Source: Sulfurimonadaceae bacterium (GTDB taxonomy: Bacteria; Campylobacterota; Campylobacteria; Campylobacterales; Sulfurimonadaceae). From it: a stretch of DNA of 64,000 nucleotides. Shown piece after piece: positions 12,489-42,332 of the stretch. Within the stretch, counting starts at the first letter, position 1, and each line of letters opens with the position of its first letter. The stretch is from NCBI GenBank assembly GCA_028683835.1, contig JAQUHB010000001.1, positions 65,060 to 129,059 on the forward strand. The letters run 5' to 3'. The notes beneath the pieces were generated by a model that had not been told where the DNA came from, made no database searches, and worked only from the letters and a program-made list of their open reading frames with translations. The translations under genes and the position numbers were made by a program.

Positions 12489-12515
12489 TCTTCTATTGTA
12501 TTGAAGGTAATCAGT

Positions 12516-12540
12516 ATATTGATTAAATTTTAATCAATAT
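12516..12540. promoter_or_regulatory. 25-bp perfect palindrome operator candidate (porin / nasA divergent region)
   Basis: The sequence is ATATTGATTAAA-T-TTTAATCAATAT. The central 23 bp are identical to 29288-29310. Confidence 0.65.
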
Positions 12541-12545: not shown

Positions 12546-12573
12546 TTAATTTTACATTAATGAGTGCTATGAT
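12546..12573 (+). promoter_or_regulatory. nasA promoter candidate: conserved box TTAATTTTACATTAA plus extended -10 TGcTATGAT
   Basis: The 15-nt box (12546-12560) is identical to the one upstream of nirA. The extended -10 lies at 12565-12573, 27 nt before the ATG at 12601. Confidence 0.45.
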
Positions 12574-12600
12574 TTTAACATATAAATTATGAGGTGTAAG

Positions 12601-14580: not shown

Positions 14581-14649
14581 AGGATAGTAATTTTCCTTTA
14601 AGAGGATTTGCTTTATACTGACTCGCAAATAAATTCAGGAGTCAGAAGT

Positions 14650-15297: not shown

Positions 15298-15322
15298 ATA
15301 AATTTTACAAAAGGAAAGTATT

Positions 15323-15838
15323 ATGGCAAAAAGAGGAATATCGATTCTAAAAGGTATCGAAGCACAAACGGTTACTACACTTTTAAATAAAGCTTATGCA
15401 GATGAGTGGTTGGCATATTATCAGTACTTTATTGAATCTAAGGTAGTGAAGGGGATCATGAAAGACGCAGCTATTACAGAACTTACCCAGCATGCAGCAG
15501 ATGAACTTCGTCATGCAACGCTGATAAGTGGACGTATCATACAACTTGGTGGGACACCTTTGTTAAGTCCAAAAGATTGGTTTACGCATACAAACTGTGG
15601 ATATGAGGCTCCAGAGGATGCCGATGTTCTTTCAATTTTAAAACAGTCGATTAAGGGTGAACAGTGTGCTATCAGTATATATAATGGGATCTTAGATATT
15701 ACAAGAGAAAAAGATGTTATTACATATGATATGGTTTCGACTATATTGGCTGATGAGGTTGAACATGAAGAAGATCTGCAAGCACTCTATGATGATATTC
15801 ATGAATTCATAGCTGAGATCAAGAAAAATATTCAGTAA
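15323..15838 (+). CDS. ferritin-like / Dps-like (bacterioferritin-type di-iron) protein
   Basis: It is 171 aa with a four-helix-bundle pattern and E..H ligands (ADELRHAT, DEVEHEEDL). Confidence 0.75.
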   Translation: MAKRGISILKGIEAQTVTTLLNKAYADEWLAYYQYFIESKVVKGIMKDAAITELTQHAADELRHATLISGRIIQLGGTPLLSPKDWFTHTNCGYEAPEDADVLSILKQSIKGEQCAISIYNGILDITREKDVITYDMVSTILADEVEHEEDLQALYDDIHEFIAEIKKNIQ

Positions 15839-15854
15839 AGTTTCGATTTTATCT

Positions 15855-15881
15855 GTAAAGAGGCTTTTTTCACCTCTTTAC
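15855..15881. terminator. perfect 9-bp stem hairpin between convergent genes
   Basis: The sequence is GTAAAGAGG-CTTTTTTCA-CCTCTTTAC, located between the stops at 15838 (+) and 15909 (-). Confidence 0.6.
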
Positions 15882-15908
15882 ATCATGAAAAGTGTTTGGT
15901 TGTAATGT

Positions 15909-16376
15909 TTATCTAAAGTCGTTATATATATAAGCCGGTTGGTTTGGTAGCTTTTTCATTTCAGCTTCAAAAAACTGTTTCAATGTTTCTTTTTGATCTT
16001 TGTTGAGATCTGCTTCTTTATGCATTAACAGGTAACTAGTTTTTGGCATAGTGCCGTGATCTAGGAGTTGAATCGCACGTTTGAGACGTTGTGCTTTTAC
16101 TTTTGGATCCATATTTGCCCAATCTGAGAAGTTTAGCGCTTTACGTCCATCATTGATATGGTCTTCCATCATCCAAGATACTGGAGAAATATGGCTATAC
16201 CAAGGGTATTTTGTTTCATTTGAGTGACAGTCGTAGCATGAAGGTTTGAGAATATTCATAACCTTGTTATCCGCTTGAAGCGTAACTGTTTCATCTACTT
16301 TTGGATTTGTAAAATCCGGTCTAATAAACTGTATCGCAATTGCAACAGCAATGAGTGCATATAATAGTTTTATCAT
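15909..16376 (-). CDS. haem-binding-domain protein (membrane anchored)
   Basis: It has an N-terminal TM helix and a CxxCH motif in the context CYDCHSNETKYPWYSHISPVSW...GRKALNFSDW, which is typical of the Haem_bd family. Confidence 0.7.
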   Translation of the reverse strand: MIKLLYALIAVAIAIQFIRPDFTNPKVDETVTLQADNKVMNILKPSCYDCHSNETKYPWYSHISPVSWMMEDHINDGRKALNFSDWANMDPKVKAQRLKRAIQLLDHGTMPKTSYLLMHKEADLNKDQKETLKQFFEAEMKKLPNQPAYIYNDFR

Positions 16377-18215: not shown

Positions 18216-20591
18216 ATGAGGTTACCTTTTCGTTTTCGATTTATACTCTCTTTTGTCACTATTGAGATTATATTTATTTCGCTTATTGTATTTTTTAATT
18301 TCTCTTCTCAGAAAAAACTCTCTCATTCCCTTATAGATGAAAAAATTCAAATAGGAAGTGAACTTTTTAGTCAATTAGTAAAAACTCCAATGGCAACTTC
18401 TGATCTTGCAACATTAGATAATCAAGCTGAAATTTTTACTGGACATAAAAATGTCATTGCAGTGCAAATATATAATCCACAAGATAAAATTCTTTCATAT
18501 GCAAACTCAGATTCCAAACTGAATATCAATGATTTCAATGAAACATCTCATGAAATAACAAAAGGTGAGAGAACATTTATAGTAAGCATTGTTCCAATAA
18601 AAGTTGATGATACTTTTCTTGGATATGCAAAAATTTTATTTGAACTGACTGATATTCATAAAGAGATCGAAAAAAATAAACATGTAACCTTTTTTCTGAT
18701 TCTCCTTGAGATTAGTATCAGTTTACTCATCGCATATATTATTGGTTATAAATTAACAAAAAGTTTGAATAAACTCACTTCATATGCGGCAAGTATAGCG
18801 CAAGAAGAACCAGAACAAAATATAGATTTCTCAAAAGGCGATGAAATAACAGTTCTTTCTCATACCCTGCATCTTATGGAAAAACGTATAGAAGAGCGTA
18901 ATGCAGAACTACAACTTGCGGCAAGTGTCTTTACACATGCACGCGAAGGGATTGTAATCACCGATGCAAATAACAATATAGTCAAAGTCAATCAAACTTT
19001 TACACGTCTCACCGGCTATAAAGCAGAAGAAATCATAGGTAAAAATCCTCGTTTTTTAAAATCTAATAAACAAGATTCGGCATTTTATGTTCAGATGTGG
19101 AGCTCTTTACTTGCAAAGGGATATTGGTACGGAGAAGTTTGGAATCGTCGTAAAAATGGACAAGAATATGCCGAGATGCTGACCATAAGTACAATCTTAG
19201 ATGATGAAGGAAAGGTCAAATATTTTGTAGCTTTACTCTCGGATATCACTCTAGCCAAGAAGCATGAGAGTGAACTTGAACATATCGCTCATTATGATGC
19301 TCTAACAAACATGCCTAACCGTATATTGCTTTCAGACCGTCTTTCGCTGGCATTGGTTCAAAGCCAACGACGTAGTAAATTTTTAGCTGTTGTATTTATT
19401 GATCTAGACGGTTTTAAGGTGGTCAATGATACACATGGACATAAGATCGGAGATATATTACTTATAAAATTAGCAGAGCGCATGCAAAATGCTTTACGTG
19501 AGGGCGATACCTTAGCGCGTTTGGGTGGAGATGAATTTGTTGCTATTTTAGTTGATTTAGAAACTCCTAAAGATTGTGAACCTGTTTTAAAACGCTTGCT
19601 GGCATCTGTATCAGAGCCTGTGGTGATAGAAAAAATAACTCTTTATGTTTCGGCAAGTGTGGGAGTTAGTATTGCACCTCAAGATGCTAATGAGGGTGAT
19701 CAGCTTATACGTCAGGCTGATCAGGCTATGTATCAAGCAAAACAATCTGGAAAAAATCGTTTTCATCTTTTTGATGCTAAAAAAGACAGTGCCATTGTCG
19801 CTTTGAATGAAAATTTGATTCGCATCAAAAAGGCACTGGATAATCATGAATTTGTTCTTTATTATCAACCTAAAATCAATCTTCAAACAAATGAGATTAT
19901 CGGTGTAGAAGCATTGATTCGATGGATAGATCCACAGCGAGGAATAATACCACCATTAAGATTTTTGCCTATTATTGAAAATGATCCTATGAGTATTGAT
20001 ATTGGAGAATGGGTTATTGACACAGCATTAAGTCAGATTGCAATTTGGAAAGAAGCCGGTATTACAATGGCAGTGAGCGTCAATATCGGTGCTCTACAGC
20101 TCCAACAAAAAAACTTTGTAACCCGTCTAAAAGAGCTTTTAAATGCTCATCCTGTAGTAGAACCGCATCTATTGGAACTCGAAATTTTAGAAACTAGTAT
20201 TGTGAGTGATCTTGCTAAAGTGACGAAAGTTATTGATGAATGTGTTGCTCTTGGTGTATTTTGTGCTCTTGATGATTTTGGTACAGGCTACTCTTCTCTA
20301 ACACATATTCGACATCTTCATGTAAATATGATTAAAATAGACCAGACTTTTGTTCGTGATATGCTTGTCGATGGTGATGATTTAGCCATTGTTGAAGGGG
20401 TTATTGGCTTATCCAAAGCTTTTAAACGTGACGTTATCGCAGAGGGTGTTGAAAGTAAAGAACATGGGGAAGCATTGTTAGAACTTGGATGCACATTGGC
20501 TCAAGGCTACGGCATAGCACGTCCGATGCCGGCATCTGAAATGCTACAATGGACAAAAAACTGGAGAGAGGAAAATTTTTGGAAATTATAA
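18216..20591 (+). CDS. membrane sensor HAMP-PAS-GGDEF-EAL protein
   Basis: Two TM helices flank a roughly 140-aa periplasmic region. It also has a PAS domain (GKNPRFLKS), a GGDEF motif (RLGGDEFVAIL) and EAL motifs (EALIRW, DDFGTGYSSL). Confidence 0.9.
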   Translation: MRLPFRFRFILSFVTIEIIFISLIVFFNFSSQKKLSHSLIDEKIQIGSELFSQLVKTPMATSDLATLDNQAEIFTGHKNVIAVQIYNPQDKILSYANSDSKLNINDFNETSHEITKGERTFIVSIVPIKVDDTFLGYAKILFELTDIHKEIEKNKHVTFFLILLEISISLLIAYIIGYKLTKSLNKLTSYAASIAQEEPEQNIDFSKGDEITVLSHTLHLMEKRIEERNAELQLAASVFTHAREGIVITDANNNIVKVNQTFTRLTGYKAEEIIGKNPRFLKSNKQDSAFYVQMWSSLLAKGYWYGEVWNRRKNGQEYAEMLTISTILDDEGKVKYFVALLSDITLAKKHESELEHIAHYDALTNMPNRILLSDRLSLALVQSQRRSKFLAVVFIDLDGFKVVNDTHGHKIGDILLIKLAERMQNALREGDTLARLGGDEFVAILVDLETPKDCEPVLKRLLASVSEPVVIEKITLYVSASVGVSIAPQDANEGDQLIRQADQAMYQAKQSGKNRFHLFDAKKDSAIVALNENLIRIKKALDNHEFVLYYQPKINLQTNEIIGVEALIRWIDPQRGIIPPLRFLPIIENDPMSIDIGEWVIDTALSQIAIWKEAGITMAVSVNIGALQLQQKNFVTRLKELLNAHPVVEPHLLELEILETSIVSDLAKVTKVIDECVALGVFCALDDFGTGYSSLTHIRHLHVNMIKIDQTFVRDMLVDGDDLAIVEGVIGLSKAFKRDVIAEGVESKEHGEALLELGCTLAQGYGIARPMPASEMLQWTKNWREENFWKL

Positions 20592-20666: not shown

Positions 20667-21965
20667 CTAGGAATCTTGCATGTAAAAAGATACGCGATTT
20701 CGTCCACTGTTTTTTGCCTGATAGAGCTGTTGATCAGCAAAGTTATAAAGAGCTTCAGATAAGGTTGTTCCCTCCACAATTGCCATACCTATGGATATCG
20801 TTACATAAGGAGAAACACTGTTTTTTTCATGTTCTATATGTAGCTCTTCGATGTTTTTTCGTAATTGTTCAGCTTGTGATAATATACTTTCTAAAGATTC
20901 ATAAGCAAAGACAACACCGAATTCTTCACCGCCTAAACGAAAACAAAAGTCACTACCACGATTGAAGTGTTGTTGTATTGCTTTTGCTACTTTGATTAAT
21001 GTTTCATCTCCGTTTATATGACCATAAGTATCATTATATTGTTTAAAAAAATCAACATCAAGCATCATGAAAACAAGTTTTTTTTCCTCCCTTTTGGCTC
21101 TATTAATTTCGCGAGGAAGAATTTTATTAAAATATCTACGATTATACAAAGAAGTCATCTCATCCGTGATGGCTTGAATTTCCAACTTTTTTTTGTAATT
21201 TTCAAGTTCTGTGATATCTGTAAAAGTAACTACATATCTTGTCTCATCAAATGACTTTGCGCGAACTAAGAATATATGGTTCTGATTTGTTTGAATATTT
21301 TTCATCTTAACTTTTGCGTCGTTATGAGGCGAATCAAGCACATCCTTTATCCATGTATTATGATTATGAATAAAACCTGTTTCTTCAATAAAAAAATCAC
21401 ATATACAATTATGTTGATGTATGAAAGGAATAAACTCTTTATAAGCAAAAAAATCAAGTACATGCTGATTTGCCATAACTAATTTGACACCATCCGAAAG
21501 AATAACAAATCCATCTTGTGCATCTAAAAGTTTTTGAATATAGCTCTCATCCTCCACAGCACCAAAATTGTAAGCCTCGCCCTCATATTCGACATAATGT
21601 GCACGTATAAATACAGGATAAAGCTTGCCATTTGCCCCTTTATGAATACTGTGGAATTCAAGCTTTTGTTTTTGTTTTAAAACTTCAATAAGCGGTATTT
21701 CGTGCTGCTGTTCATTAAAATTGATATCTAAATCGCCAATGCTCATGGTGAGGAGTTGATCTTTTGTGTATCCATACTTATGAATAACCGTATCATTTAC
21801 ATAAACAAAGTGATTATCTTTATCCACTACGAAAATAAGATTATTGATATGATTGATCATGTAGCTGATAAATGTTTGCTCTCGATCTTCATGTTGGAAC
21901 TCAAGAATATCATTGATCTGTTTTGTAAAGGATTTGAGGGCTGATTCATTAAATGTTTTTTGCAT
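20667..21965 (-). CDS. PAS-domain diguanylate cyclase (GGDEF)
   Basis: It has a C-terminal GGDEF domain (RLGGEEFGVVF, NSGRNRV), an N-terminal PAS domain and a His/Cys-rich middle region. Confidence 0.85.
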   Translation of the reverse strand: MQKTFNESALKSFTKQINDILEFQHEDREQTFISYMINHINNLIFVVDKDNHFVYVNDTVIHKYGYTKDQLLTMSIGDLDINFNEQQHEIPLIEVLKQKQKLEFHSIHKGANGKLYPVFIRAHYVEYEGEAYNFGAVEDESYIQKLLDAQDGFVILSDGVKLVMANQHVLDFFAYKEFIPFIHQHNCICDFFIEETGFIHNHNTWIKDVLDSPHNDAKVKMKNIQTNQNHIFLVRAKSFDETRYVVTFTDITELENYKKKLEIQAITDEMTSLYNRRYFNKILPREINRAKREEKKLVFMMLDVDFFKQYNDTYGHINGDETLIKVAKAIQQHFNRGSDFCFRLGGEEFGVVFAYESLESILSQAEQLRKNIEELHIEHEKNSVSPYVTISIGMAIVEGTTLSEALYNFADQQLYQAKNSGRNRVSFYMQDS

Positions 21966-22641: not shown

Positions 22642-24129
22642 TTGACTGTTTATTTGGTGATAAAAAAGAGAGAAAGTTTTTTAGGAATAAAGCCGCTTAG
22701 TCCAAGCAAACTTAAAACAGCAATCATCTTGCTTGGCGCGAGTTTTATCAAGCTTGCTCAAGTACTTGCTACTCGTGCAGATTTTTTTACGCCTGAATAT
22801 CTTGAAGAACTTAAAGAACTTCATGATCAGCTTCCGGCGATGAGTGAAAGAGAGTTTGAGACAGTCTATCACAGGGCTTTTGAAACAGATGATTTTAAAA
22901 GTTTTGAAAAAACTCCTATTGCTTCAGCATCTATCGGTCAGGTGCATGCTGCGTATTTACAAGATGGTACTAAAGTAGCTGTCAAGCTCAGACGCTTGAT
23001 AATTGCAGACCAAGTGAAAGCCGATATAAAAATCATTAATTTTTTCAATATTCTTTTTCGCCCGCTTTTTTCGCATACGACAAAAAACTCTATCGAAGCC
23101 GTTATCTCAGAGTTTTCAAAGATGATACTACAAGAAGTGAGTCTCACCCATGAACTAGGGAACTTAGTAAAGTTTTCATCGGTATATAAAGAGAGTGGCA
23201 TCAGATTTCCTCTTGCCTATAAAGAGCTTTGCAGTGACGATGCGATTGTTATGAGCTATGAAGAGGGATTTCGTTTTGATGACAAAGAGAATATTTTTAA
23301 GTACAAAATAGATTTTAAAAAAATTATTGCTAAACTTGTAGATTTTTACACTCAGCAGATGCTTATAAAGGGATATTTTCACGCTGATCCGCATCCGGGA
23401 AATTTACTTGTGACAAAAGAGGGTGAACTCATTTTACTTGATTTTGGAATGGTGAAGACTGTACCAAACAATTCTCGTGTAGCGATCATTGAACTTATCA
23501 AAGCGGCAAACGAACAAGATTATGAGCGTTATATTGAAGCAAGTAAGAAGCTTGGAACAGTTGCGTATGAAGCTCCCACATCAGAATTAGCAGAGTTTGC
23601 ATCTAAGATGTTTGAGATATTTTCAAATGAAAATCTTACAAGTGAATCGATGCAGCAACTTGCTTTTGAAGTGATGGAATCAACGCGTGATCTGCCCTTT
23701 AAACTTCCAAGCGATGCGATCTATATTCTTCGTGTAAGTGCCATCGTGGAGGGACTTGGAACGACCTATATAGAAAATTTCAATGGAATCAAAGATATTT
23801 TACCGATTTTGCAGAAAAATATTCCAAAAGCACTTGGGGCAAAAGAGAGCATTTTAGAAACAATCATAGAGGAGATCAAAGATATCCCTTTTATTGCAAA
23901 AGATTTTAAAACGGCGATTAAAAAGATCAGTTCGGATTCCTTACATGTAGAGCTTTCAAACGATCAGCTAGACTGGATAAAGAGAGATCTCAGATCGAGT
24001 GCAAAATCTTATGCAATCTCATTTTCTTTGATGCTTGGCGGAGTTTTTATACTTTTGGCAGAGAAAGATTTAAAAGAGATTGCCATTGCAATTTTTGTCT
24101 TTGGACTTGCGAGAATTTTGTATAAATAG
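22642..24129 (+). CDS. ABC1/UbiB-family atypical kinase with C-terminal TM helices
   Basis: Family motifs are present (FIKLAQVLATRADFFTPEYLEELKELHDQLP, ASIGQVHAA, VAVKLRR, FHADPHPGNLLV, LLDFGM). The start is uncertain: TTG at 22642, TTG at 22654 or GTG at 22657, with no nearby ATG. Confidence 0.85.
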   Translation: MTVYLVIKKRESFLGIKPLSPSKLKTAIILLGASFIKLAQVLATRADFFTPEYLEELKELHDQLPAMSEREFETVYHRAFETDDFKSFEKTPIASASIGQVHAAYLQDGTKVAVKLRRLIIADQVKADIKIINFFNILFRPLFSHTTKNSIEAVISEFSKMILQEVSLTHELGNLVKFSSVYKESGIRFPLAYKELCSDDAIVMSYEEGFRFDDKENIFKYKIDFKKIIAKLVDFYTQQMLIKGYFHADPHPGNLLVTKEGELILLDFGMVKTVPNNSRVAIIELIKAANEQDYERYIEASKKLGTVAYEAPTSELAEFASKMFEIFSNENLTSESMQQLAFEVMESTRDLPFKLPSDAIYILRVSAIVEGLGTTYIENFNGIKDILPILQKNIPKALGAKESILETIIEEIKDIPFIAKDFKTAIKKISSDSLHVELSNDQLDWIKRDLRSSAKSYAISFSLMLGGVFILLAEKDLKEIAIAIFVFGLARILYK

Positions 24130-24142
24130 GTATAATCTAAGT

Positions 24143-25387
24143 ATGATAAATATTGAAAATATTGGAATCAAATCACTTATTGAAAGTTTTGATAATGCGC
24201 TTGAGCCCATTATCATTACGACGGCTTCTTTGGATGAGGGTGTAGAAATAATCTTTGCCAATGAAGCTTTCTGCCGTGAGACTTTATATGAAAAAAACGA
24301 GATCATAGGACAAAATCCAAGTATCCTTTCTGGCAGACGTACAAATTATAATCTACTCGAACAATTAAGAAAAGATCTTCAAGACGGTAAAAATTTTGTA
24401 GGGCAAAATATTAACTATAAAAAAGACGGCACTGAATATATGGCACAGTGGAGTGTCTCTCATCTCAAGGATGAGCAAAATCAAACTATAGCTTACATCT
24501 CTTTTCAAAAGATAATTACAAAATATATGAAGATAAAAAATGATAATTTCTTGCTTCAAGCTGTTGTAAAGAGCGCTCCTGGGATGATTCTTGTGACGGA
24601 TCTTGAGGCAAAGATTGTATATGCTAATGACTCTTTTTGTCAAAACGTAGGATATTCTCAGTCTGCACTTATTGGTAAACATTCAAAGCTTCTAAAATCT
24701 GGACAGCAAGATAGTAGTTTTTATAAAAATATGTGGCAGACACTTATAAAAGAGGGTGAATTTGAAGGTATTTTTGTCAATAGAAAAAAAGATGGAACTA
24801 TTTATTATGACAAAAAAAAGATAAAGACCATTAGTGATGAAAATGGAAAAAGAGCTTATTATTTCAGTGTAAGTTATGATATCACGCAAGAGAGACGAAA
24901 TAAACAGAAGATGCTCGATGAGATCTATCTTGACTCATTGACACAACAATTTAATAGAAAAAAATATGAAGAAATGATTCAGGGGAAGATAAAAGAGGGG
25001 AAAGAGTTTTCTATAATACTTATGGATATTGATTTCTTCAAAAGAGTAAATGATGACTATGGACATGATAAGGGAGATTTTATCTTAAGAGAGTTTTCAC
25101 GTCTTGTCAAAGCATTTATGATCTTTGGTAAAGATGAGCTGTTTCGATGGGGCGGCGAGGAGTTTGTCGTTCTTACAGATAGAAAAATCGAAGAAGCGAA
25201 AAACATAGCCAATGTACTTAAAAATATGATTTTTCAACATGATTTTGACGGTCTACATATAAGCGTAAGTATGGGGATAACACAGATGCAAAAAGGAAAA
25301 GATCAAACAACACTCTTTAATCTCGCTGATAAAGCTCTTTATGAAGCAAAAAAATCAGGGCGAAATAAAATAGTCGTTTATGAATAA
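24143..25387 (+). CDS. PAS-PAS-GGDEF diguanylate cyclase
   Basis: It has two PAS domains and a GGDEF domain (RWGGEEFVVL, KSGRNKIV). I preferred the ATG at 24143 over the TTG at 24080, which would overlap the upstream gene. Confidence 0.85.
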   Translation: MINIENIGIKSLIESFDNALEPIIITTASLDEGVEIIFANEAFCRETLYEKNEIIGQNPSILSGRRTNYNLLEQLRKDLQDGKNFVGQNINYKKDGTEYMAQWSVSHLKDEQNQTIAYISFQKIITKYMKIKNDNFLLQAVVKSAPGMILVTDLEAKIVYANDSFCQNVGYSQSALIGKHSKLLKSGQQDSSFYKNMWQTLIKEGEFEGIFVNRKKDGTIYYDKKKIKTISDENGKRAYYFSVSYDITQERRNKQKMLDEIYLDSLTQQFNRKKYEEMIQGKIKEGKEFSIILMDIDFFKRVNDDYGHDKGDFILREFSRLVKAFMIFGKDELFRWGGEEFVVLTDRKIEEAKNIANVLKNMIFQHDFDGLHISVSMGITQMQKGKDQTTLFNLADKALYEAKKSGRNKIVVYE

Positions 25388-27313: not shown

Positions 27314-29227
27314 TTAAGCGAGTTGTACAAACTGTGTCAGTTCTGAAAATACAACTGCTCTGTAATCGTTTGTAAGCATCTTTTCTATCATTTGAGCGAG
27401 ATTTTCGTCCATATGTAAGCCTGCTGAGGCTATTTTTCTTATGTCTTCCGGTTTTTCTCTTTTGTTCTCATTTGTAAATCTTTCATACGCCGAGTAGGGC
27501 TCTTTCTTTGTGAATGCAAAGTAAAGTTTTCGTCCAAGTTCGAAGAGTTCGAACTCCTCATTTTTTCCTGTATTGCCTATTTTATTCAGATCGATTTCAA
27601 GCGCTATATTTTTTGCTCTGAAATATGCATTTAGTTGCATAAAAAATCCGATATATGCAGAACTGTAGTTACTCAAAACTCTGTCATGAAACTTCTCAAA
27701 ACTTTCATTTTTTAAGCGAAGTCTTTTGTATTCCAGCATCAGAGTTTCAACATAAAAACGGGCAAATCTTAAAGGTGCTGCTTTAATAACGCTGTAGCCT
27801 TCGAGTCCTTCACTTACAAGTTTTCCGCCAAGAGAGATGTGTACGCCATCCTCTGTGACTCCGCCGACTTTCGCTTTACATCCCTCAAAGCCGATATCGC
27901 CAAGTCCATGAAGCCCGCATCCTTTGACACACGCCGACCAATACATTCTCACACGTCCAGATTCTAAAGGTACTTTTTCTCCTAAGTAAGTCGCCATATC
28001 GATAGCATCCTGTTTGTTTTCTATAACACCAAATGAGCAGTGTTTTGTTCCAGCACACGCGATGAGATTGTTAAAATATGGAGTATTGATATTTTTATAT
28101 TTTTCGAAAAATGGCTCAGACAGGAGTGCGGGCACATCTTTGACTCCCAAAATATAGATATTTTGCCCCGTACTAAAACGGATTTCGCTATTGCCATAGC
28201 GCTCACTGAGTTCACTGACATGTAAGAGATCGCTTCCGCTAAATATACCCGAGGGAATAACTACATGGACGCCAAAACTTCCATCACGAAGTTGGACTTT
28301 CCCATGGTCGGCATCTGAAAAATCAAGCGCTGTCATCGTTTCACCTGCAGTTGCAAAGTCGATCTTTGCATTTTCACGTATAGCAGAAGATATTTCAGCC
28401 ATTCCAACTTCTTCGATCAAATAATTGAGACGGTTTTTATTTCTATTGTCACGAAAACCAAAGCGTTTAAAAAGATCGATGATAGACGCATAAGCGCAGG
28501 TGACCTCTTCATGTGAAGATAAGAAGATATCTGCACTTTTTGCTACCTCGCCCACTTTGCCGCCAAGATACATGTTATAGCCATAAACACCATTTTTTTG
28601 AGCGAGGATAAAACAGCAGTCATGCCCGTAAACGTTACATCTATTTGACAGTGAGCCAGAAATAGAAGTGTTAAACTTTCTAGGAAGTGCACTTATCCAC
28701 GCAGGATCGTGCAAAAACTGGCTTTGGAGTTTTTCTAAGAGAGGCTGAGATTCCAAAACATTATCAAATGCATATTTATCTAAAGGATCATTGACAATAT
28801 TTCTAAAGTTATCAACACCTGTTTGAAAAGAATCGATGCCGACTGTTTGCAAACGGCGCAGAAGTGTTGGAATATTTTCTATATCCAAATATCTAAGTTC
28901 TATCTGCGCGCGAGTAGTGATATCGATATAGTCTTGCCCAAAATCTCGTGCGACTTCGCCGATAGCTCTCGCCTGAACAGAATTCAGATGTCCACCCGCA
29001 ATACGAACTCGCATCATAAATTGTTTTGGAGTTAGACCATCTTTATCAAAGATACCAAAACATTTAAGAAAATATTTTTTATCCTCATCAGGGATGGAGT
29101 CATAACCACTTTGTGCGTATTCATCGAGTTTTGAAAATACATCCATCGGATTTTTGAGGATTTTGACTTCTTCTATTTTATTGACTTTTTTATTTCTTGC
29201 GATAAACGCTTCATGTAACTTTTGCAT
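27314..29227 (-). CDS. nirA: ferredoxin-type nitrite (sulfite) reductase hemoprotein with a C-terminal extension
   Basis: It has the siroheme / 4Fe-4S Cys motif (CAGTKHC ... CVKGCG) and a duplicated NIR_SIR fold. I chose the start at 29227 (MQKLHEAF) because GGAG lies 8 nt upstream. The track start at 29263 falls inside the conserved promoter box. Confidence 0.85.
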   Translation of the reverse strand: MQKLHEAFIARNKKVNKIEEVKILKNPMDVFSKLDEYAQSGYDSIPDEDKKYFLKCFGIFDKDGLTPKQFMMRVRIAGGHLNSVQARAIGEVARDFGQDYIDITTRAQIELRYLDIENIPTLLRRLQTVGIDSFQTGVDNFRNIVNDPLDKYAFDNVLESQPLLEKLQSQFLHDPAWISALPRKFNTSISGSLSNRCNVYGHDCCFILAQKNGVYGYNMYLGGKVGEVAKSADIFLSSHEEVTCAYASIIDLFKRFGFRDNRNKNRLNYLIEEVGMAEISSAIRENAKIDFATAGETMTALDFSDADHGKVQLRDGSFGVHVVIPSGIFSGSDLLHVSELSERYGNSEIRFSTGQNIYILGVKDVPALLSEPFFEKYKNINTPYFNNLIACAGTKHCSFGVIENKQDAIDMATYLGEKVPLESGRVRMYWSACVKGCGLHGLGDIGFEGCKAKVGGVTEDGVHISLGGKLVSEGLEGYSVIKAAPLRFARFYVETLMLEYKRLRLKNESFEKFHDRVLSNYSSAYIGFFMQLNAYFRAKNIALEIDLNKIGNTGKNEEFELFELGRKLYFAFTKKEPYSAYERFTNENKREKPEDIRKIASAGLHMDENLAQMIEKMLTNDYRAVVFSELTQFVQLA

Positions 29228-29253
29228 TATTCTTCTCCAAGTATTGTAGAGAA

Positions 29254-29282
29254 ATTTTAACATTCATTTAATGTAAAATTAA
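29254..29282 (-). promoter_or_regulatory. nirA promoter candidate: conserved box TTAATTTTACATTAA plus extended -10 TGtTAAAAT
   Basis: On the minus strand the box lies at 29282-29268 and the extended -10 at 29262-29254. The spacing to the palindrome and to the ATG matches the nasA copy. Confidence 0.45.
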
Positions 29283-29286
29283 CAAT

Positions 29287-29311
29287 TTATTGATTAAATT
29301 TTAATCAATAA
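29287..29311. promoter_or_regulatory. 25-bp perfect palindrome operator candidate (nirA / narK divergent region)
   Basis: The sequence is TTATTGATTAAA-T-TTTAATCAATAA. The central 23 bp are identical to 12517-12539. Confidence 0.65.
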
Positions 29312-29339
29312 GATGGTTATTTAAAGGAATGTTTCCTGA

Positions 29340-29345
29340 TATACT
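29340..29345 (+). promoter_or_regulatory. -10 candidate TATACT for narK
   Basis: It lies within the shared 11-mer GATATACTTTT (29338-29348), 41 nt from the palindrome centre. Confidence 0.4.
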
Positions 29346-29393
29346 TTTGATGTTCGAAAGTTTTTAATGAAAAATTAAGTTAAGGAGAATCAC

Positions 29394-30674
29394 ATGGCGG
29401 GTTTTAAAGAGTTAAAGGGACAGGGACATTGGCCGACGCTTTTGGCGGCATTTTTGTATTTTGATTTTAGTTTCATGGTGTGGACTATGCTTGGGCCACT
29501 CGCAACAGAGATAGGTGAGTCATTGGCAGCCAGTGGATTTGTGATGAGTGCTTCTGCAAAAGCGACTCTTCTATCTATTCCTATTCTCTCAGGTGCGATT
29601 CTTCGTATAGTACTTGGGTTTGGTGTTGATAAATTTGGTGCAAAAGCTACGGCTCTTGTTTCTCAAGCAGTTGTTATTGCTGTACTTTTTTATGCTTACT
29701 TTAGAGGTGAGGGGATTACATATAATGAACTCATAATGGTTGCATTTGGTCTTGGTTTTGCAGGTGCATCTTTTGCAGTTGCTCTTCCTCAAGCTGGACA
29801 GTGGTATCCGCCGAAGCTTCAAGGTGTTGTTCTTGGAATTGCAGGTGCAGGAAATATCGGTGTGGTTATCGACTTTCTTTTCGCTCCAAAGATAGCGCAG
29901 TTTTGGGGATGGCAGTCTGTATTTTTAGTTGGTGCCGTACTTTCAAGTATTATCTTTGTGACATATATGTTTATGGCAAAAAATGCTCCTCTTGAAGTGT
30001 ATACACCACGTCCTAAAAAATTAAAAGATTACGGAAAACTTTTGAAAGATAAAGATACTTGGTGGTTTAACCTTTTTTATGCCGTAAGTTTTGGTGGATT
30101 TGTTGGATTTGCCGGATATATGAAAGTTTATTTGATGGGCACATATCAAGCAGATATGAGCGCTTTTGGTTTGGACTTTTTAGATGAGAGTAACGTTAAA
30201 GTTGTTGCTGGATACTTTGGAGCTTTATGTATCTTTGCTGGTGCAGTTCTTCGTCCTGTCGGTGGAGCGATAGCAGATAAAATGGGTGGAGTAAAATCAC
30301 TTTACTTCTTTTATGGAACAGTTGCAGCGATGGCACTTTTGAGTGCTTACATCACACTTCCGTTTTATTTTGCGATCTTAGTGATGTTCTTGATTATGGC
30401 AAATCTTGGTATGGCAAACGGTGCTGTATTTCAGCTAGTACCTCAGAGATTTGGTAAAGATATCGGTATAATGACAGGCATTATCGGGGCGGCTGGTGGT
30501 CTTGGCGGATCAGCGCTTATCCAGACTTTTGGATGGAGTAAAGGTGCATTTGATGGCTACTCAGCTGGATTTACTATCTTTGCAGGTGTTGTTTTACTCG
30601 CTCTTATGGGTATCAGTTTTGTGAAAACTAGATGGAGAACTACTTGGGGTCTTCAAGCTGGCGGTAGAATTTAA
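29394..30674 (+). CDS. narK: MFS nitrate/nitrite transporter
   Basis: It is a 12-TM MFS protein with NNP-family Gly-rich motifs (GFAGASFAVALPQ, GAAGGLGG). An AGGAG Shine-Dalgarno precedes the start, and it is divergent from nirA. Confidence 0.85.
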   Translation: MAGFKELKGQGHWPTLLAAFLYFDFSFMVWTMLGPLATEIGESLAASGFVMSASAKATLLSIPILSGAILRIVLGFGVDKFGAKATALVSQAVVIAVLFYAYFRGEGITYNELIMVAFGLGFAGASFAVALPQAGQWYPPKLQGVVLGIAGAGNIGVVIDFLFAPKIAQFWGWQSVFLVGAVLSSIIFVTYMFMAKNAPLEVYTPRPKKLKDYGKLLKDKDTWWFNLFYAVSFGGFVGFAGYMKVYLMGTYQADMSAFGLDFLDESNVKVVAGYFGALCIFAGAVLRPVGGAIADKMGGVKSLYFFYGTVAAMALLSAYITLPFYFAILVMFLIMANLGMANGAVFQLVPQRFGKDIGIMTGIIGAAGGLGGSALIQTFGWSKGAFDGYSAGFTIFAGVVLLALMGISFVKTRWRTTWGLQAGGRI

Positions 30675-30680: not shown

Positions 30681-32318
30681 ATGATGTCACAAGCCAACAT
30701 AAAAAGTTCAGGATTTACCCTTGCAAAGGGAAAAAAACTTGTTGGTGATGACGTTTATGAAGTAAAAATGCTTGGCGATCTTACCATCGCCATAGTGTGT
30801 GATGGTGTAGGAAGTGCCTCTCATGGGCGTGAAGCAGCCTCAAGAGTTACTTCTTATCTCATCAATAACTTCAAAACGCGCCCAAAAAGCTGGAGTATTG
30901 AAAAATCTATTCTCACTTTTGTAGAATCGATCAACTCTATTCTTTATCAAGAATCACAGATCAATTATGAAGCATCAGAACTCGTTACTACTATAGCGCT
31001 TATCGTCATTGAGGGTAATCGTCTTTATGGCGTCAATGTCGGTGACAGTAGAGTCTACATGGTCAGAGAAAACGAACTGATTCAACTCTCACAAGATCAT
31101 GCGATGCAAGAGAGTGGATACGAGGGAGTTCTCACTGAGGCAATAGGAATCTCTAAAGAAGTTTCTCCATATTATTTTGAAAATATCATTCAAAAAAATG
31201 ACAAGATCTTGCTTTGTAGTGATGGGCTTTATAGTATTATGGATGATGAACGTCTAATAAGTGGCTTGCCTTTTGGTGCGCACGGCTTAGTTAAAAAAGC
31301 AAGCAAGATCATGCAACACGATTTGCCAGATGATACCACGGCGGTAGTCGTCGAGATACTTAAGGCTGATGAACTTATTATCTTAAAACAGCAAATTTTA
31401 CCGATTCCAGAAACTTTGAAAAAAGGGCAGGTGATAGACGGGTTTGTGTTAGAAGAGTCACTCATTCAAAACAATAGAACTTGGAAATGTTCTAAAAAAT
31501 CAAGAGAATATGTCATCAAATTTGCACCCTTGGAGGGAATTGATGATGAAGCAGTAATTGACCTCTACATCAAAGAAGCATGGAATGCTAAAAGACTGAG
31601 ATCCAAGTTTTTTCCAAAAGCAGTGATTCCTAAAAAACGAAGTAGCCGTTACTATATTATGCAATTTACAGGCGGTGAAGATCTTGATAGTTATCTAAAA
31701 AAACAGCAGTTAAGTATTGATGATACGATAGAACTTGCAAAGACTCTTTTAAATATGTCACAATATCTTCTCAAATTTGATCTTCTCCATGGTGACATCA
31801 AGACAAATAATGTCATGATACTAAAAGGTGAGTCGACAAAATTTAAGATCATTGATTTTGGAAGTATTACTGAGATATTTTCATCCGATTCAAGGGCAGG
31901 AACGCCAAGTTACCTTTCTCCGCAAAGATTTCAAAATGAAGCGATCAGCGAAACAACTGAGATATTTTCTATTGGTGTTTTACTCTATTTAACACTCACG
32001 AAAAAATATCCTTATGGTGAGATTGAGCCATTTCAAACTCCTGTTTTTAAAGAGGCTAAAAAACCGAGTGTCTATAATAAAAATATTCCTGCATGGCTTG
32101 ACAGTGTAATCCTTCGCGCCATTGCTATCGAAACAGAACGTAGATATGGGCACTATACAGAGATGATGGTTGAACTTCAAAATCCTCAAAAAGTGAAACC
32201 GTTTTTTCCAAAAAACAGCTCTATCATCCAAAGATCACCTTTGCTATTTTATAGAACGGCGTTTACGGTAATGTTTATACTCAATATTATTTTGATTTTT
32301 TACTGCAATACTAAATAA
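30681..32318 (+). CDS. bifunctional PP2C-type phosphatase / Ser-Thr protein kinase with C-terminal membrane anchor
   Basis: PP2C motifs lie in the N-terminal ~225 aa (CDGVGSASHG, GDSRVYMV, LLCSDGL, DDTTAVVVEI). Hanks kinase motifs follow (YVIKF, LHGDIKTNNVMI, IIDFGS, GTPSYLSPQ). A C-terminal TM helix is present (FTVMFILNIILIFYC). It starts 6 nt after the narK stop. Confidence 0.85.
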   Translation: MMSQANIKSSGFTLAKGKKLVGDDVYEVKMLGDLTIAIVCDGVGSASHGREAASRVTSYLINNFKTRPKSWSIEKSILTFVESINSILYQESQINYEASELVTTIALIVIEGNRLYGVNVGDSRVYMVRENELIQLSQDHAMQESGYEGVLTEAIGISKEVSPYYFENIIQKNDKILLCSDGLYSIMDDERLISGLPFGAHGLVKKASKIMQHDLPDDTTAVVVEILKADELIILKQQILPIPETLKKGQVIDGFVLEESLIQNNRTWKCSKKSREYVIKFAPLEGIDDEAVIDLYIKEAWNAKRLRSKFFPKAVIPKKRSSRYYIMQFTGGEDLDSYLKKQQLSIDDTIELAKTLLNMSQYLLKFDLLHGDIKTNNVMILKGESTKFKIIDFGSITEIFSSDSRAGTPSYLSPQRFQNEAISETTEIFSIGVLLYLTLTKKYPYGEIEPFQTPVFKEAKKPSVYNKNIPAWLDSVILRAIAIETERRYGHYTEMMVELQNPQKVKPFFPKNSSIIQRSPLLFYRTAFTVMFILNIILIFYCNTK

Positions 32319-39244: not shown

Positions 39245-40659
39245 AATATGCAGTCGTAGGCTCAGGAGTAGGTGGATGTTCCATCGCTGCATATCTTGAC
39301 GCAAAAGGGTATAAAACTGTACTTTTTGAAAAAGATTCTAATCTTGGCGGATGCAGTTCTACATTTACTCGAAACTCTTACATGTACAACACAGGCGCTA
39401 CCACTTTGGCTGGGTATAAAGATGGGCATATCGTGAAATCTCTTTTTGACTCTATCGGCTATAAACCAAAACTCTTAGCAACGGATCCCGCAATTGTGAT
39501 TATACAAAATGGTAAAACTTCTCCAAGATACAGAGATTTGGAGAAGTTTTTAACAGTTGTAGAGCAAAACTATCCACACCCAAAAAATAGAGAGTTTTGG
39601 ACGCTTGTGTATGAATTAAACAAGAAATTTTACTCGATTGATGGATATTATTATTCAAATAGCTCTTTTTTAAAAAAAGCACTTTCGCTTTTGAGTTATA
39701 CACCCATTTTTTTGAAGTTTTTTAGATATTTTTCTGTGAATGCAAAAACTTTTTTAGATCACTTCTTTGGCGGAATAGACAAAGAGTATTTAGATTTTTT
39801 AGAGGCTCAGATTATGATCGTCGCACAGGCAAAAAGTTCTGAGATAAATTTCTTTACCTGTGCGCTTGCTCTTGGATATACCTTCAATGAAACACATTAT
39901 GTTTATGGAGGAATGGGCGCGCTTTTCGATGGAATGAGTGCAGATATGAAAGATGTGAGAGTGAACTCTGAGATTAAAAAAATAGAAAAAAAAGAGGGAT
40001 ATTACAAGCTTTACACAAAGGATGAGGTCATCGAGGCAAAGAATGTGATTTTAAACTCGACGGTGTATGCAAGTGCAAAACTTTTCGATGAAAGTTCGAT
40101 ACAAAATTACTATAAAAAATATGAAAAACTCGACAATCGTCAAAGCTCTTTTATGCTTTACGTGACGATTAAAAGTGATGTGGAATTTGCGCATCATTAT
40201 CAGATTATTCAAGATGAAAAGTTTGAAGGTAGCATCTCAAATGCACTCTTTGTTTCATTTTCAGATAAAGATGATGAGCAAATTGCGCCAAAAGGTTACT
40301 ACTCTATCACAGCTTCCATCCACACAGATGTAAGGTTTTGGCAAAAAGATGCAGATTATAAGGCAAAAAAAGAGAGATTAAAAAACTTACTGCTAGAATC
40401 TCTTATGAAAAATCTTGATATCCAAACATCTCAGATTATAGATTGTATTAGTGCAACTCCGAGTACATTTGCTAAATATATAAGCCGTTCTCAGCTTGGA
40501 GGTAATGCGATTACTATGAAAAACTTTTTACCTTTTCTGCCATCAAATGACACACCTATAAAAGGACTTTACAACGTAGGCGACACTGTCTATGCCGCGC
40601 AAGGCTGGCCTGGTGTAATGCTTGGTGTAAACAATCTCAAAAAGCTTTTACATGTATGA
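39238..40659 (+). CDS. FAD-dependent oxidoreductase of the phytoene-desaturase (CrtI) / amine-oxidase superfamily
   Basis: A GxGxxG fold lies at the extreme N-terminus (YAVVGSGVGGCSIAAYL...FEKDSNLGGC), which forces the GTG start at 39238. That start overlaps hemH by 7 nt. Confidence 0.75.
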   Translation: MLEYAVVGSGVGGCSIAAYLDAKGYKTVLFEKDSNLGGCSSTFTRNSYMYNTGATTLAGYKDGHIVKSLFDSIGYKPKLLATDPAIVIIQNGKTSPRYRDLEKFLTVVEQNYPHPKNREFWTLVYELNKKFYSIDGYYYSNSSFLKKALSLLSYTPIFLKFFRYFSVNAKTFLDHFFGGIDKEYLDFLEAQIMIVAQAKSSEINFFTCALALGYTFNETHYVYGGMGALFDGMSADMKDVRVNSEIKKIEKKEGYYKLYTKDEVIEAKNVILNSTVYASAKLFDESSIQNYYKKYEKLDNRQSSFMLYVTIKSDVEFAHHYQIIQDEKFEGSISNALFVSFSDKDDEQIAPKGYYSITASIHTDVRFWQKDADYKAKKERLKNLLLESLMKNLDIQTSQIIDCISATPSTFAKYISRSQLGGNAITMKNFLPFLPSNDTPIKGLYNVGDTVYAAQGWPGVMLGVNNLKKLLHV

Positions 40660-41662
40660 TATAGCTTTACATGTAAAGCTCAAAGACTGGCTTTATATTC
40701 TCATATTTGGACTTGTTTTTGGCTCTTTTTTATCTGCTTTGGGTTATGTGCTTTTAGAAAAAGATTGGCTCAACGGTGCTTTATATGGAGTGCTACTCGG
40801 CTTTAGTATCACTTTTTTATCTTTGGTTTTTATCTCTTTTATGAATCATTTTGTGTTACCAAAAGTGAGTCCTAAATACTGGCTCATTTTGGCGATAGTT
40901 TTCTCCTTTTTATCAGGATTTTTTGGGACACTTCTCAGTGTATTTGTAGCACAAAAAACGGGGATTGAACTCATTGCATTATTTGAAACAAGTTCGGTGG
41001 GTATTGCTGCAACTATCGGTATTTTGACCTATCTTTTAGGTGCGCTTTTATACAGATTTGTACGGATGCGAAATGAAAAAGAGTTAGTTGATGGCAACTA
41101 TATCAAAAGCAGACTCTCTTCTCTTGAGACTCAGTTAAATCCTCATTTTTTATTTAACGCACTTAACTCCATTGCTGAACTTATCCACACCGATGTGAAC
41201 AAAGCAGAAGAAGCTATACTCAAAGTCTCCTCATTTTTACGAAATACGATGAGTGAAGAAGCCCATATCAGCATAAAAAATGAGCTCTTACATGTAAGGG
41301 ATTATGTGGAACTTGAAAACATCCGTTTTACAGATAAAATTCTCTTACATGTAAACGGATCATTTCCCCCGTACAAGATCCCGAAATTTTCTATCCAGCT
41401 TTTGGTTGAAAATGCTATCAAGCATGGTTTTATACAAAAAGAGAAAAATCTAAATATCGAGATCTCTTTTGATGTGCAAAAAAAGGTACTCATAGTAAAA
41501 AATGATGGGACTCCGATGAAGAGCAATACGTTTGGAATCGGTCTTACAAATCTGAATCAAAGATTGGAACTTTTATGCAAAGGGTTTCTAGAAGTAGGTG
41601 ACAAAGAAACACCAACATTTTATATACATTTAGGAGATTGTCATGAAAATACTCGTAGTTGA
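40652..41662 (+). CDS. LytS/YehU-type sensor histidine kinase
   Basis: It has an N-terminal multi-TM region, the His_kinase signature LETQLNPHFLFNALNSI, and HATPase_c motifs (ENAIKHG, GIGLTN). It overlaps the upstream gene by 8 nt. Confidence 0.85.
   Translation: MYDIALHVKLKDWLYILIFGLVFGSFLSALGYVLLEKDWLNGALYGVLLGFSITFLSLVFISFMNHFVLPKVSPKYWLILAIVFSFLSGFFGTLLSVFVAQKTGIELIALFETSSVGIAATIGILTYLLGALLYRFVRMRNEKELVDGNYIKSRLSSLETQLNPHFLFNALNSIAELIHTDVNKAEEAILKVSSFLRNTMSEEAHISIKNELLHVRDYVELENIRFTDKILLHVNGSFPPYKIPKFSIQLLVENAIKHGFIQKEKNLNIEISFDVQKKVLIVKNDGTPMKSNTFGIGLTNLNQRLELLCKGFLEVGDKETPTFYIHLGDCHENTRS
40663..40680. repeat. 18-bp perfect palindrome AGCTTTACATGTAAAGCT (longest copy of the iterated TTACATGTAA motif)
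   Basis: Read directly from the sequence. It lies 11 nt inside the kinase ORF. A second copy, AGCTTTTACATGTATGA at 40643-40659, spans the stop/start overlap. Confidence 0.8.
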
Positions 41663-42332
41663 TGATGAACCACTTGCACGCGCTCGTGTGATACGTATGC
41701 TTACAACACTTGGATATAAAGATATTTTTGAAGCTACAAATGCGGATAAAGCCATAGCCATCGTGAGGCAAAATGAGATAGACCTTGTACTTTTAGATAT
41801 CAATATGCCAGGCGTGAGTGGCATAGAACTCGGTCATGAACTAAAATATCTTAAAAATAATATCGCGATCATCTTTCAAACAGCCTATGAAGAGCATGCG
41901 CTAGAAGCTTTTGAGATTGGAGCCGTTGGGTACTTGGTAAAGCCATTTAGCATTGATCAGCTTTCAACAACGCTCTCTCGGGTAGTCAAAGAGAGTGACT
42001 CCTCATACAAGATGATGAGTAAAAACGGTGAGCACTATTATCTTCTTAAACCTGAAGATATTTTTTATATCAAAGCAGATCTTGCAGAGGTGATACTTCG
42101 TACATCAAGTGGTTTTTCATACAGCGCTCAAAAAATATCGGATTTGGAAGATAAACTCAGCTCTTATGGTTTTATACGAATTCATCGCTCTTATCTTATC
42201 AATCCAGACAAGATAAAAGAGATGACGACAATAGAGCAGAGTAAACTAAGGTTTTCATTTTCTGGAATAAATGATGAGATAGATTCAAGCAAGGATGGAG
42301 CAAAAGAGTTTAGAAATCTTTTTTCTAACTAA
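41643..42332 (+). CDS. LytTR-family response regulator
   Basis: It has a receiver domain (KILVVDDEP...LLDINMPG...VGYLVKP) and a LytTR domain (FIRIHRSYLIN). It overlaps the kinase gene by 20 nt. Confidence 0.9.
   Translation: MKILVVDDEPLARARVIRMLTTLGYKDIFEATNADKAIAIVRQNEIDLVLLDINMPGVSGIELGHELKYLKNNIAIIFQTAYEEHALEAFEIGAVGYLVKPFSIDQLSTTLSRVVKESDSSYKMMSKNGEHYYLLKPEDIFYIKADLAEVILRTSSGFSYSAQKISDLEDKLSSYGFIRIHRSYLINPDKIKEMTTIEQSKLRFSFSGINDEIDSSKDGAKEFRNLFSN

Follow-up and report, generated by a model that had tools for sequence, protein, structure and literature searches.

The 64,000-nucleotide stretch of contig JAQUHB010000001.1 from a Sulfurimonadaceae bacterium that was analysed here (the window, 36% G+C) carries, at its nitrate and nitrite assimilation genes, two two-way promoter modules of about 170 bp which lie in mirrored orientation to each other. 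The first separates the gene for an outer-membrane barrel protein with a partial Pfam match to Alginate_exp (11126-12433, minus strand, here called the porin gene) from nasA (12601-14580), which by Pfam encodes a NasA-like molybdopterin oxidoreductase with an Fe4S4 domain. The second separates nirA (27314-29227, minus strand), with the NIR_SIR nitrite/sulfite reductase domain, from narK (29394-30674), a NarK-like transporter of the major facilitator superfamily, both again assigned by Pfam. Both regions were read directly and both contain the same 23-bp perfect palindrome, TATTGATTAAA(T)TTTAATCAATA, surrounded by the further elements collected in Table 1.

The inner 19-mer of this palindrome, TTGATTAAATTTTAATCAA (12519-12537 and 29290-29308), has only these two copies in the window at up to three mismatches (chance expectation 0.46), and in a scan of the window with a weight matrix trained on the sites upstream of nirA in related genomes, described below, only the two dyads exceeded a score of 12. 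The match that scored 11.5 at 61456, upstream of a DAHP synthase gene, is weak and was judged to be noise. With one region reverse-complemented, the alignment of the two intergenic regions scored 27, compared to -13.5 +/- 5.9 for shuffled sequences (maximum of 9 in 500 shuffles), which places it 6.9 standard deviations above them. Most of the named elements were 80-100% identical between the two regions, with the reductase extended -10 and the auxiliary site lower at 67%, and the intervening spacers reached only 44%. The first-pass annotation of this DNA had set the dyad centres at 12528 and 29299 and had measured from them the reductase-side extended -10 elements and the transporter-side 11-mers (40/41 nt) and the start codons (72/73 nt on the reductase side, 95 nt on the transporter side); our reading found every one of these coordinates and distances to be exact, and the alignment of the regions with each other and with relatives that it had proposed gave the score above and showed the elements to be kept in orthologous cassettes. 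Three of the four promoters, those of nasA, nirA and narK, have the extended -10 form (TGn followed by TAnnnT), and that of the porin gene, aGaTATACT, is without the TG. A scan for the sigma-70 consensus -35/-10 pair found nothing above chance and did not recover the proposed promoters, because these are without a -35 element.

Table 1. Elements of the two intergenic regions of the window. Distances are from the centre of the dyad of the same region; transcript positions are relative to predicted starts; L numbers denote related loci (see text).
Feature	Position	Strand	Remarks
Porin start codon	12431-12433	-	95 nt from centre; similar layout in the L186 orthologue, start 93 nt from centre
Box B1, TTAGTTTTACATAAA	12452-12466	+	degenerate second copy of the 15-nt box, 2 mismatches; in predicted porin leader, about +20 of the transcript; same orientation as box A1, 94 nt away; identical in L186
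Porin-side 11-mer, GATATACTTTT	12480-12490	-	contains -10 hexamer TATACT at 12488-12483, 40 nt from centre
Auxiliary motif-like site 1, TGTATTGAAGGTAATCA	12497-12513	+	centred 23 nt porin-side of dyad 1; support weaker than for the main dyad; in L186 TGTATCGAAGATAATCA, half-sites kept, centre altered
Dyad 1 (porin/nasA), TATTGATTAAATTTTAATCAATA	12517-12539		23-bp perfect palindrome; 17-bp core TGATTAAATTTTAATCA at 12520-12536, centred on 12528; matrix score 19.4
Box A1, TTAATTTTACATTAA	12546-12560	+	centred +25 from dyad, about -27 of predicted nasA start
nasA extended -10, TGcTATGAT	12565-12573	+	hexamer 40 nt from centre; TG and TA columns conserved in alignment A2
nasA ribosome-binding site GAGGTG and ATG	12591-12603	+	ATG at 12601, 73 nt from centre; N-terminus MIKSVCGYCG common to L186, L012 and L017
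nirA start codon	29225-29227	-	72 nt from centre; homologues align from residue 1
nirA extended -10, TGtTAAAAT	29254-29262	-	hexamer 40 nt from centre
Box A2, TTAATTTTACATTAA	29268-29282	-	identical to box A1; centred 24 nt from dyad on the nirA side
Dyad 2 (nirA/narK)	29288-29310		23-bp palindrome as dyad 1; core 29291-29307, centre 29299; conserved in L001 and L002
Auxiliary half-site 2, TGGTTA...	29314-29330	+	centred 23 nt narK-side; only one arm fits the motif, weak support; kept as TGGTTA and TGCTTA in L001 and L002
narK extended -10, TGaTATACT	29337-29345	+	hexamer 41 nt from centre
narK-side 11-mer, GATATACTTTT	29338-29348	+	
Box B2, TTAATTTTTCATTAA	29364-29378	-	1 mismatch; in predicted narK leader; orientation as box A2, 96 nt away; identical in L001, L002, L003, L005, L009, L011 and others
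narK ribosome-binding site AGGAG and ATG	29383-29396	+	ATG at 29394, 95 nt from centre

The NirA protein, used to scan species-representative genomes, matched 80 loci, all from Campylobacterales/Sulfurimonadaceae and mostly from metagenome-assembled genomes (MAGs) of Sulfurimonas. The two closest, L001 and L002 (NirA 93-94% identical), also have narK and nirA in divergent orientation, and in both the same dyad lies 72 nt from the nirA ATG. Reading of the nirA upstream regions, followed by iterative refinement of a weight matrix, revealed a motif that precedes nirA in 56 of the 80 loci, which are all of those where nirA heads its unit; in the remaining loci nirA directly follows narK, cysG or nasA. 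The motif is 17 bp long, with two 6-bp arms whose centres are 11 bp (one helical turn) apart, and has the consensus TGnnTA-N5-TAnnCA with T1 and G2, T5 and A6, T12 and A13, and C16 and A17 invariant and the centre A/T-rich. The arms vary by clade, being TGATT in the window, TGTAT in the clade of L009 and TGCTT, TGTTT or TGCAT elsewhere. Each of the 56 nirA promoters has a TAnnnT hexamer whose start is 39-41 nt from the site centre (background probability 0.127 in these sequences), and the nirA ATG usually lies 75-76 nt from it. Across 0.96 Mb of related loci, 99 sites scored 15 or more, and the hexamer spacing was found on at least one side of 94 of these and on both sides of 24; the two-sided sites were more symmetric than the one-sided ones (5.3 compared to 4.5 of the 6 arm positions, P = 0.002, a value not corrected for phylogeny).

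Four loci have two sites 34-36 bp apart, each 40 nt from its own -10 (L026 at 3807/3841, L031 at 1856/1890, L034 at 1995/2031 and L077 at 4588/4622). In these genomes narK is divergent from a gene of the nasA operon, which is nasA itself in L026 and otherwise a gene for an Fe-S-anchor protein, and there is one site per promoter. In locus L157 the exact 17-bp dyad core is present at 1461 and again at 1537, 76 nt apart, with the narK -10 and the cysG -10 each 40-41 nt from one of them; the full 19-mer is found at 1537, one end base differs at 1461, and this cassette is without the 15-nt boxes discussed below.

The motif is not confined to nitrate and nitrite genes. Metagenome contigs scanned for TTGATTAAANTTTAATCAA gave at least 120 matches, mostly in unrelated AT-rich DNA and chance-like, but requiring a hexamer at +39 to +41 and the start of an open reading frame (ORF) close by left 27 loci, nearly all of them with nitrogen-assimilation functions and on Campylobacterota-like contigs. 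The exact dyad was upstream of glnA (L086, L122, L154, L156, L170 and L174), amtB or amt (L106, L116, L139, L147, L159 and L184, with amt-glnK in L116 and L147), nrtA (L166), narK (L157 and L117) and cysG (L157), and in L186 it lay between porin and nasA genes orthologous to those of the window. The dyad was also upstream of genes for outer-membrane proteins of the OprD, Porin_4 and Gcw_chp types (L088, L102, L119, L167, L187, L193, L195 and L198, three of which were checked with Pfam). In these metagenome promoters the ATG was mostly 65-83 nt from the dyad centre and the TAnnnT hexamer 39-41 nt. A specificity scan of 81 Sulfurimonadaceae loci (the same 0.96 Mb), using a matrix trained on nirA sites only together with the spacing filter, matched nirA 54 times, narK 23, the Fe-S-anchor gene heading nasA operons 13, nasA 8, nrtA 4, cysG 2, an FNT transporter gene 2, a COX1-like operon 2, an unknown 871-amino-acid protein 3 and single unnamed ORFs 3. 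With high confidence, then, these sequences point to the dyad being the operator of a global nitrogen regulon in Sulfurimonadaceae-type Campylobacterota rather than a site specific to nitrate genes.

Two of the less expected matches deserve mention. The gene for the 871-amino-acid protein (L009 1055-3670, also in L015 and L079) has a high-scoring site, TGATTAAATTTTATACA, 75 nt before its start and is a candidate extra member of the regulon. Genes for a COX1-like haem-copper oxidase and a small subunit lie divergent from nasA/Fe-S-anchor operons (L010 2182-4481, L023 at about 3832 and L117 6602-8826) with their own motif site at the +40 spacing, and they may encode an NO-reductase-like detoxification coupled to nitrate assimilation.

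The second element of the cassettes is a 15-nt box with the consensus TTAAyTTTWCATTAA. Searching the 80 loci with up to two mismatches gave 43 matches, 30 of which were in the intergenic regions of nitrate/nitrite cassettes, and the copies there are almost always two, in the same orientation and 94-96 nt apart (72 nt in L047), flanking the dyad. Box pairs were found in at least 14 cassettes which join different gene pairs: narK/nirA (L001, L002, L009, L011, L012, L015, L016, L017 and L079), nrtA/nasA (L012 and L017), narK/cysG (L003 and L005) and narK/Fe-S-anchor (L063). In an alignment of 14 cassettes (A2) the invariant columns were confined to box B, the transporter -10 (where the AAAAkTATA block of the 11-mer is invariant), the dyad arms, box A and the reductase -10. 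Relative to the predicted starts, the centre of box A lies at about +25 from the dyad and at about -27 of the reductase promoter, and that of box B at about -70 from the dyad and at about +20 of the transporter transcript. No box was present in the glnA, amtB or L157 narK promoters examined, and the narK start is 76 nt from the site centre where box B is lacking compared to 95 nt where it is present. The box is thus a separate element specific to nitrate/nitrite cassettes and probably a pathway-specific operator. In L013 (1600-1772) a full cassette of box B, -10, dyad and box A stands before narK with no reductase gene on the box A side, from which it appears that box A may be needed for the control of narK itself.

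These comparisons change part of how the cassettes had been described. The first-pass annotation had proposed that a single dyad, equidistant from its -10 hexamers, serves two divergent promoters, and this gains strong support from the spacing in 56 of 56 nirA promoters, in 94 of 99 sites and in about 28 metagenomic promoters of glnA, amtB, nrtA, narK and porin genes. It had the 15-nt box filling the -35/spacer region; the copies are indeed identical and so placed, but the box is no mere filler, being a separate, conserved and paired element, and the box B copies in both transporter leaders of the window had been overlooked. It had also called the cassette duplicated with mirrored geometry. 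Two mirrored copies there are, but they do not stem from a recent duplication in this genome: the similarity is limited to functional blocks and both cassette types coexist in distant species (L012 and L017, with NirA about 70% identical), and on this evidence the module is old, widespread and maintained by selection.

We consider it probable that both intergenic regions are copies of a single nitrogen-control module, bidirectional and conserved in Sulfurimonadaceae-type Campylobacterota, and that its central palindrome is the binding site of a global nitrogen regulator. Taking the -10 hexamer to occupy -12 to -7, a symmetric dimer on the palindrome would sit about 52 bp upstream of the predicted transcription start on both sides, the two starts being about 104-105 bp apart. 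The two sigma-70-type promoters, with a -10 or extended -10 and no -35, would drive a transporter gene (porin or narK) in one direction and a reductase gene (nasA or nirA) in the other, and the regulator would most likely activate both when fixed nitrogen is scarce. That it is an activator is, like the module as a whole, a probable reading of the sequence, as are the positions of the starts and the dimeric state. The spacing is fixed to within 1 nt across dozens of unrelated promoters and over a wide divergence, which argues for an activator contacting RNA polymerase, and arm centres one helical turn apart are what is expected for a helix-turn-helix dimer. Since shared sites are more symmetric and the two-site genomes, like L157, keep the spacing, each promoter appears to need a site at about 40 nt. 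The boxes lie inside one core promoter and in the leader of the other gene, about nine helical turns apart, so they may be where a pathway-specific repressor binds, possibly looping the DNA of roughly 95 bp between them, although we would put this at somewhat less than an even chance; full expression would then need nitrogen limitation plus a nitrate- or nitrite-related signal. More tentatively still, the whole could represent an undescribed two-tier nitrogen control of free-living Campylobacterota, possible rather than probable as a joint proposal, in which a global regulator, either of a family new to nitrogen control or an NtrC/TyrR-like protein re-wired to sigma-70, would drive two divergent promoters from its rigid -52 site, and a nitrate/nitrite-specific protein binding the boxes, some nine turns apart, would loop both promoters and the activator site.

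Several points weigh against this account. All of the promoter positions are deduced from -10-like hexamers, and because Campylobacterota sigma-70 promoters generally are without a -35 element, as seen in the transcriptome maps of Helicobacter pylori and Campylobacter jejuni, its lack here does not in itself speak for an activator. Of the approximately 200 loci examined, in which conserved gene clusters were checked, none has a regulator gene linked to it. A repressing or looping role for the boxes is deduced from their position and spacing, and their conserved core, TTTWCAT, is asymmetric, an uncommon feature in the operator of a simple dimer. A further motif-like site, lying over the spacer and -10, is present in many promoters, and this is one ground for reading the dyad as the operator of a nitrogen-excess repressor, AmtR-like or like the GlnR of Bacillus, with the same regulon and the opposite sign. 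Upstream of nirA in most Sulfurimonas loci (for example L024, L030, L032 and L033) TGCCTAAAAAATAGC is conserved about 33 nt past the main site and into the -10 hexamer, and looks like an imperfect second copy of the motif in the promoter spacer; TGCATAAAATTTAAGCT is an example from amtB promoters, and the auxiliary site of region 1 in the window falls at about -29 of the porin promoter. GlnR of Bacillus subtilis represses glnRA through two operators, near -50 and near -25, and by analogy with this layout the regulator could repress or do both; moreover the three window promoters with an extended -10 could work without an activator. We nevertheless regard a repressor as unlikely, as one bound upstream of the -35 position would need no spacing to the -10 exact to within 1 nt, yet this spacing holds in about 95% of the 99 sites, the main site is always clear of the -10 and of the predicted start, and single-site promoters exist (for example glnA in L086 and L156). 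Much less probable again is a site for an FNR/CRP-family protein responding to oxygen or nitric oxide, like the NssR/Nss system of Campylobacterota. The window dyad does begin with TTGAT and end with ATCAA, the FNR half-sites, but these are 9 bp apart and not 4, the axis falls on a base and is unfit for CRP-fold dimers, and relatives use TGTAT, TGCTT or TGTTT with only T1, G2, T5 and A6 of the arm invariant. The centre at about -52 is off both -41.5 and -61.5, and the regulon consists of glnA, amtB and nas genes; neither of the even-length forms sought, TTGAT-N4-ATCAA and TGTGA-N6-TCACA, was found in the dyad.

The box and the likeness of the two regions could also be explained otherwise. Box A lies in the -35/spacer region, its TTTACA resembles the -35 consensus TTGACA, its orientation is conserved and its core asymmetric, all of which would suit a part of the core promoter (an odd -35, an UP-like or an alternative-sigma element) whose leader copy is a relic of the history of the module, and elements which replace the -35 exist in the phylum, for in some H. 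pylori promoters AT-rich motifs to which HP1043 binds take the place of the -35 region (PMC5253667). The TTTACA is, however, too close to the -10 for sigma-70, at only 11 nt for nasA and 12 nt for nirA, and box A as a -35 element was rejected for this reason. Box B is as well conserved as box A despite lying downstream of the transporter -10 and has no -10-like hexamer at a matching distance, L013 retains box A with no gene downstream on that side, and other promoters of the same regulon do without the box, so that a core-promoter role seems to us doubtful, about as much so as a repressor at the dyad. A recent segmental duplication or an accident of AT-rich DNA, with no regulatory meaning, might be thought of given the 36% G+C of the window and the chance-like nature of most of the exact dyad matches in metagenomes. 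It is hardly credible when the identity falls in discrete blocks (80-100%, with two at 67%) set in spacers at 44%, when these blocks are kept in species with NirA 60-78% identical and in cassettes of other gene pairs, and when the alignment stands so far above the shuffles.

The search for the regulator itself covered several levels. Pfam scans of essentially all ORFs of the window found no regulator linked to the cassettes; those present are a Fur-family gene (59381-59848, minus strand), a LytTR response regulator with a kinase (40652-42332) and DksA. For the 80 nirA loci the ORFs were clustered and the cluster representatives read by eye without a domain scan, and none resembles a DNA-binding protein: the neighbours of nirA look like housekeeping genes (pyrH, spoT, rpoZ and tyrS), cysG, the Fe-S anchor, an NrtABD-type transporter, the PP2C-kinase described below and hybrid kinases. 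Nor was there a MerR-like gene in the window or in the conserved gene clusters checked in related loci, and the matrix scans of all Campylobacterota-like loci showed no autoregulated regulator gene, the sites being found only at assimilation, transport and porin genes. Full-text literature searches found nothing on nitrogen regulators or this motif in Epsilonproteobacteria/Campylobacterota.

Other features of the window lie around the cassettes. Directly after narK is a gene for a PP2C phosphatase-Ser/Thr protein kinase fusion (30681-32318), and the same gene adjoins narK or nirA in 18 of the 81 related loci, a hint that nitrate uptake is controlled post-translationally. Directly downstream of nasA, 14608-16376 has genes for a rubrerythrin whose N-terminal domain is of the desulfoferrodoxin type, for a ferritin-like protein and, on the other strand, for a protein with a Haem_bd domain, and looks like an oxidative-stress or iron-handling cluster beside the Fe-S/molybdenum enzyme. 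The genes gltB (glutamate synthase large subunit, cut at the 5' end of the window) and gltD occupy 2-4886, with their promoter outside the window. A dense set of PAS-GGDEF and GGDEF-EAL genes stands around and between the cassettes (18216-20591, 20667-21965, 24080-25387, 49534-51453 and 60467-61393). A direct repeat of 75 nt, 80% identical (46235-46309 and 47252-47326, 1017 nt apart), lies inside a 937-amino-acid ORF (44843-47656) and, rather than being a mobile repeat, may reflect a duplication within an ABC-type ATPase with two domains, such as UvrA. Rfam and tRNA scans of the window found only a tRNA-Thr. The porin, looked up by its exact sequence, has no entry in public assemblies.

Sulfurimonas and its relatives are major chemolithoautotrophs of hydrothermal vents, sulfidic groundwater and oxygen-minimum zones, and the sensing and control of nitrogen assimilation in Sulfurimonas-type Campylobacterota are essentially uncharacterised. 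Motif, spacing and genes together give a concrete predicted regulon of glnA, two amt genes, glnK, nrtA, narK, nasA, nirA, cysG and several porins. From the motif, nitrogen-responsive genes of MAGs can be predicted, nitrogen-regulated porins included, and the 23-bp dyad and the 15-nt box can serve as bait for the regulators. The cassette also offers a clean natural case of one symmetric site for two promoters, for which sister genomes use two sites 34-36 bp apart.

The dyad was compared with the sites of known regulators. NtrC sites (TGCACC-N5-GGTGCA) and TyrR boxes (TGTAAA-N6-TTTACA) are bound by the Fis-type helix-turn-helix domains of NtrC-family proteins, and the 17-bp, 6-5-6 frame with TG...CA arms found here is like that of NtrC, a subset even having TGC...GCA (for example TGCTTAATATATAAGCA); the regulon of glnA, amtB, glnK and nas genes is also that of proteobacterial NtrC. 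TyrR and the NtrC of Rhodobacter work with sigma-70 polymerase. The arms here are, however, AT-rich and unlike TGCACC, the position is fixed at -52 compared to about -100 to -140, and the promoters are of the sigma-70 type with a -10 or extended -10. NtrC acting with sigma-54 was accordingly rejected: TGnTAnnnT is present, and GG-N10-GC was not seen by eye between dyad and start, where no pattern search was run. A Fur box (7-1-7, TGATAATnATTATCA, or 9-1-9) does not match either, as the arms are 8-1-8 with different inner bases and the regulon is one of nitrogen; nothing links the Fur-family gene of the window to the dyad, though Fur boxes are also odd-symmetric AT-rich palindromes. The LysR box, T-N11-A, is not found, the dyad having A-N11-T, and no LysR gene flanks any cassette. 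The HP1043/HsrA motif consists of two TTTAAG direct repeats 5 bp apart (PMC5253667), and neither dyad nor box has such repeats.

In its two-tier logic the cassette is like the cyanobacterial nirA operon, where NtcA at GTA-N8-TAC, centred on -41.5, is joined by the pathway-specific NtcB: in both, a global site keeps a fixed distance to a -10 that has no -35, and a further element is specific to nitrate/nitrite genes. The dyad is nonetheless no NtcA site, since even the clade of L009 has TGTA-N9-TACA with an odd symmetry axis, other clades are without GTA/TAC, and the centre is 39-41 nt before the -10 hexamer, at -52 rather than -41.5. Unlike the NtcB element, the box is inside the core promoter and the leader and not upstream, which suggests repression rather than co-activation. 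In this the boxes recall the looping systems of gal (OE/OI), lac (O1/O3) and deo, where paired operators likewise bracket a promoter region and an activator site; here the pair is 94-96 bp, or about nine turns, apart. This analogy is a positional one, the box core being asymmetric and its binding predicted from sequence.

The closest documented analogue is the TnrA box of B. subtilis, a single copy of which is common to the divergent nasA and nasB operons (PMC4475385). This TnrA/GlnR box, TGTNANAWWWTNTNACA, is an inverted repeat of 17 bp, and amtB-glnK is under its control too (PMC4475385). Like it, the dyad is one 17-bp interrupted inverted repeat with TG/CA ends and an A/T-rich centre serving divergent nitrate operons, and the regulon logic is the same, extending to amtB-glnK and other nitrogen genes. 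At TnrA-activated promoters the box is about 49-51 bp upstream of the start, which is close to the -52 or so predicted here. The two differ in that T5, A6, T12 and A13 are invariant here and position 3 is free (T in 34, C in 13, A in 6 and G in 3 of the 56 sites) whereas the TnrA box conserves T3 and A5, so that the dyad is not itself a TnrA/GlnR box; the host is a Gram-negative member of the Campylobacterota, the loci examined showed no homologue of tnrA or glnR, and the paired 15-nt boxes are without a counterpart in Bacillus. What is new is the combination of a shared nitrogen operator with a paired and probably pathway-specific element, neither of which has been described in this phylum; the shared operator is of a kind known from TnrA. 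The sequence of the dyad fits none of the families tested, but the system it belongs to would work much as TnrA- or NtcA-type control does.

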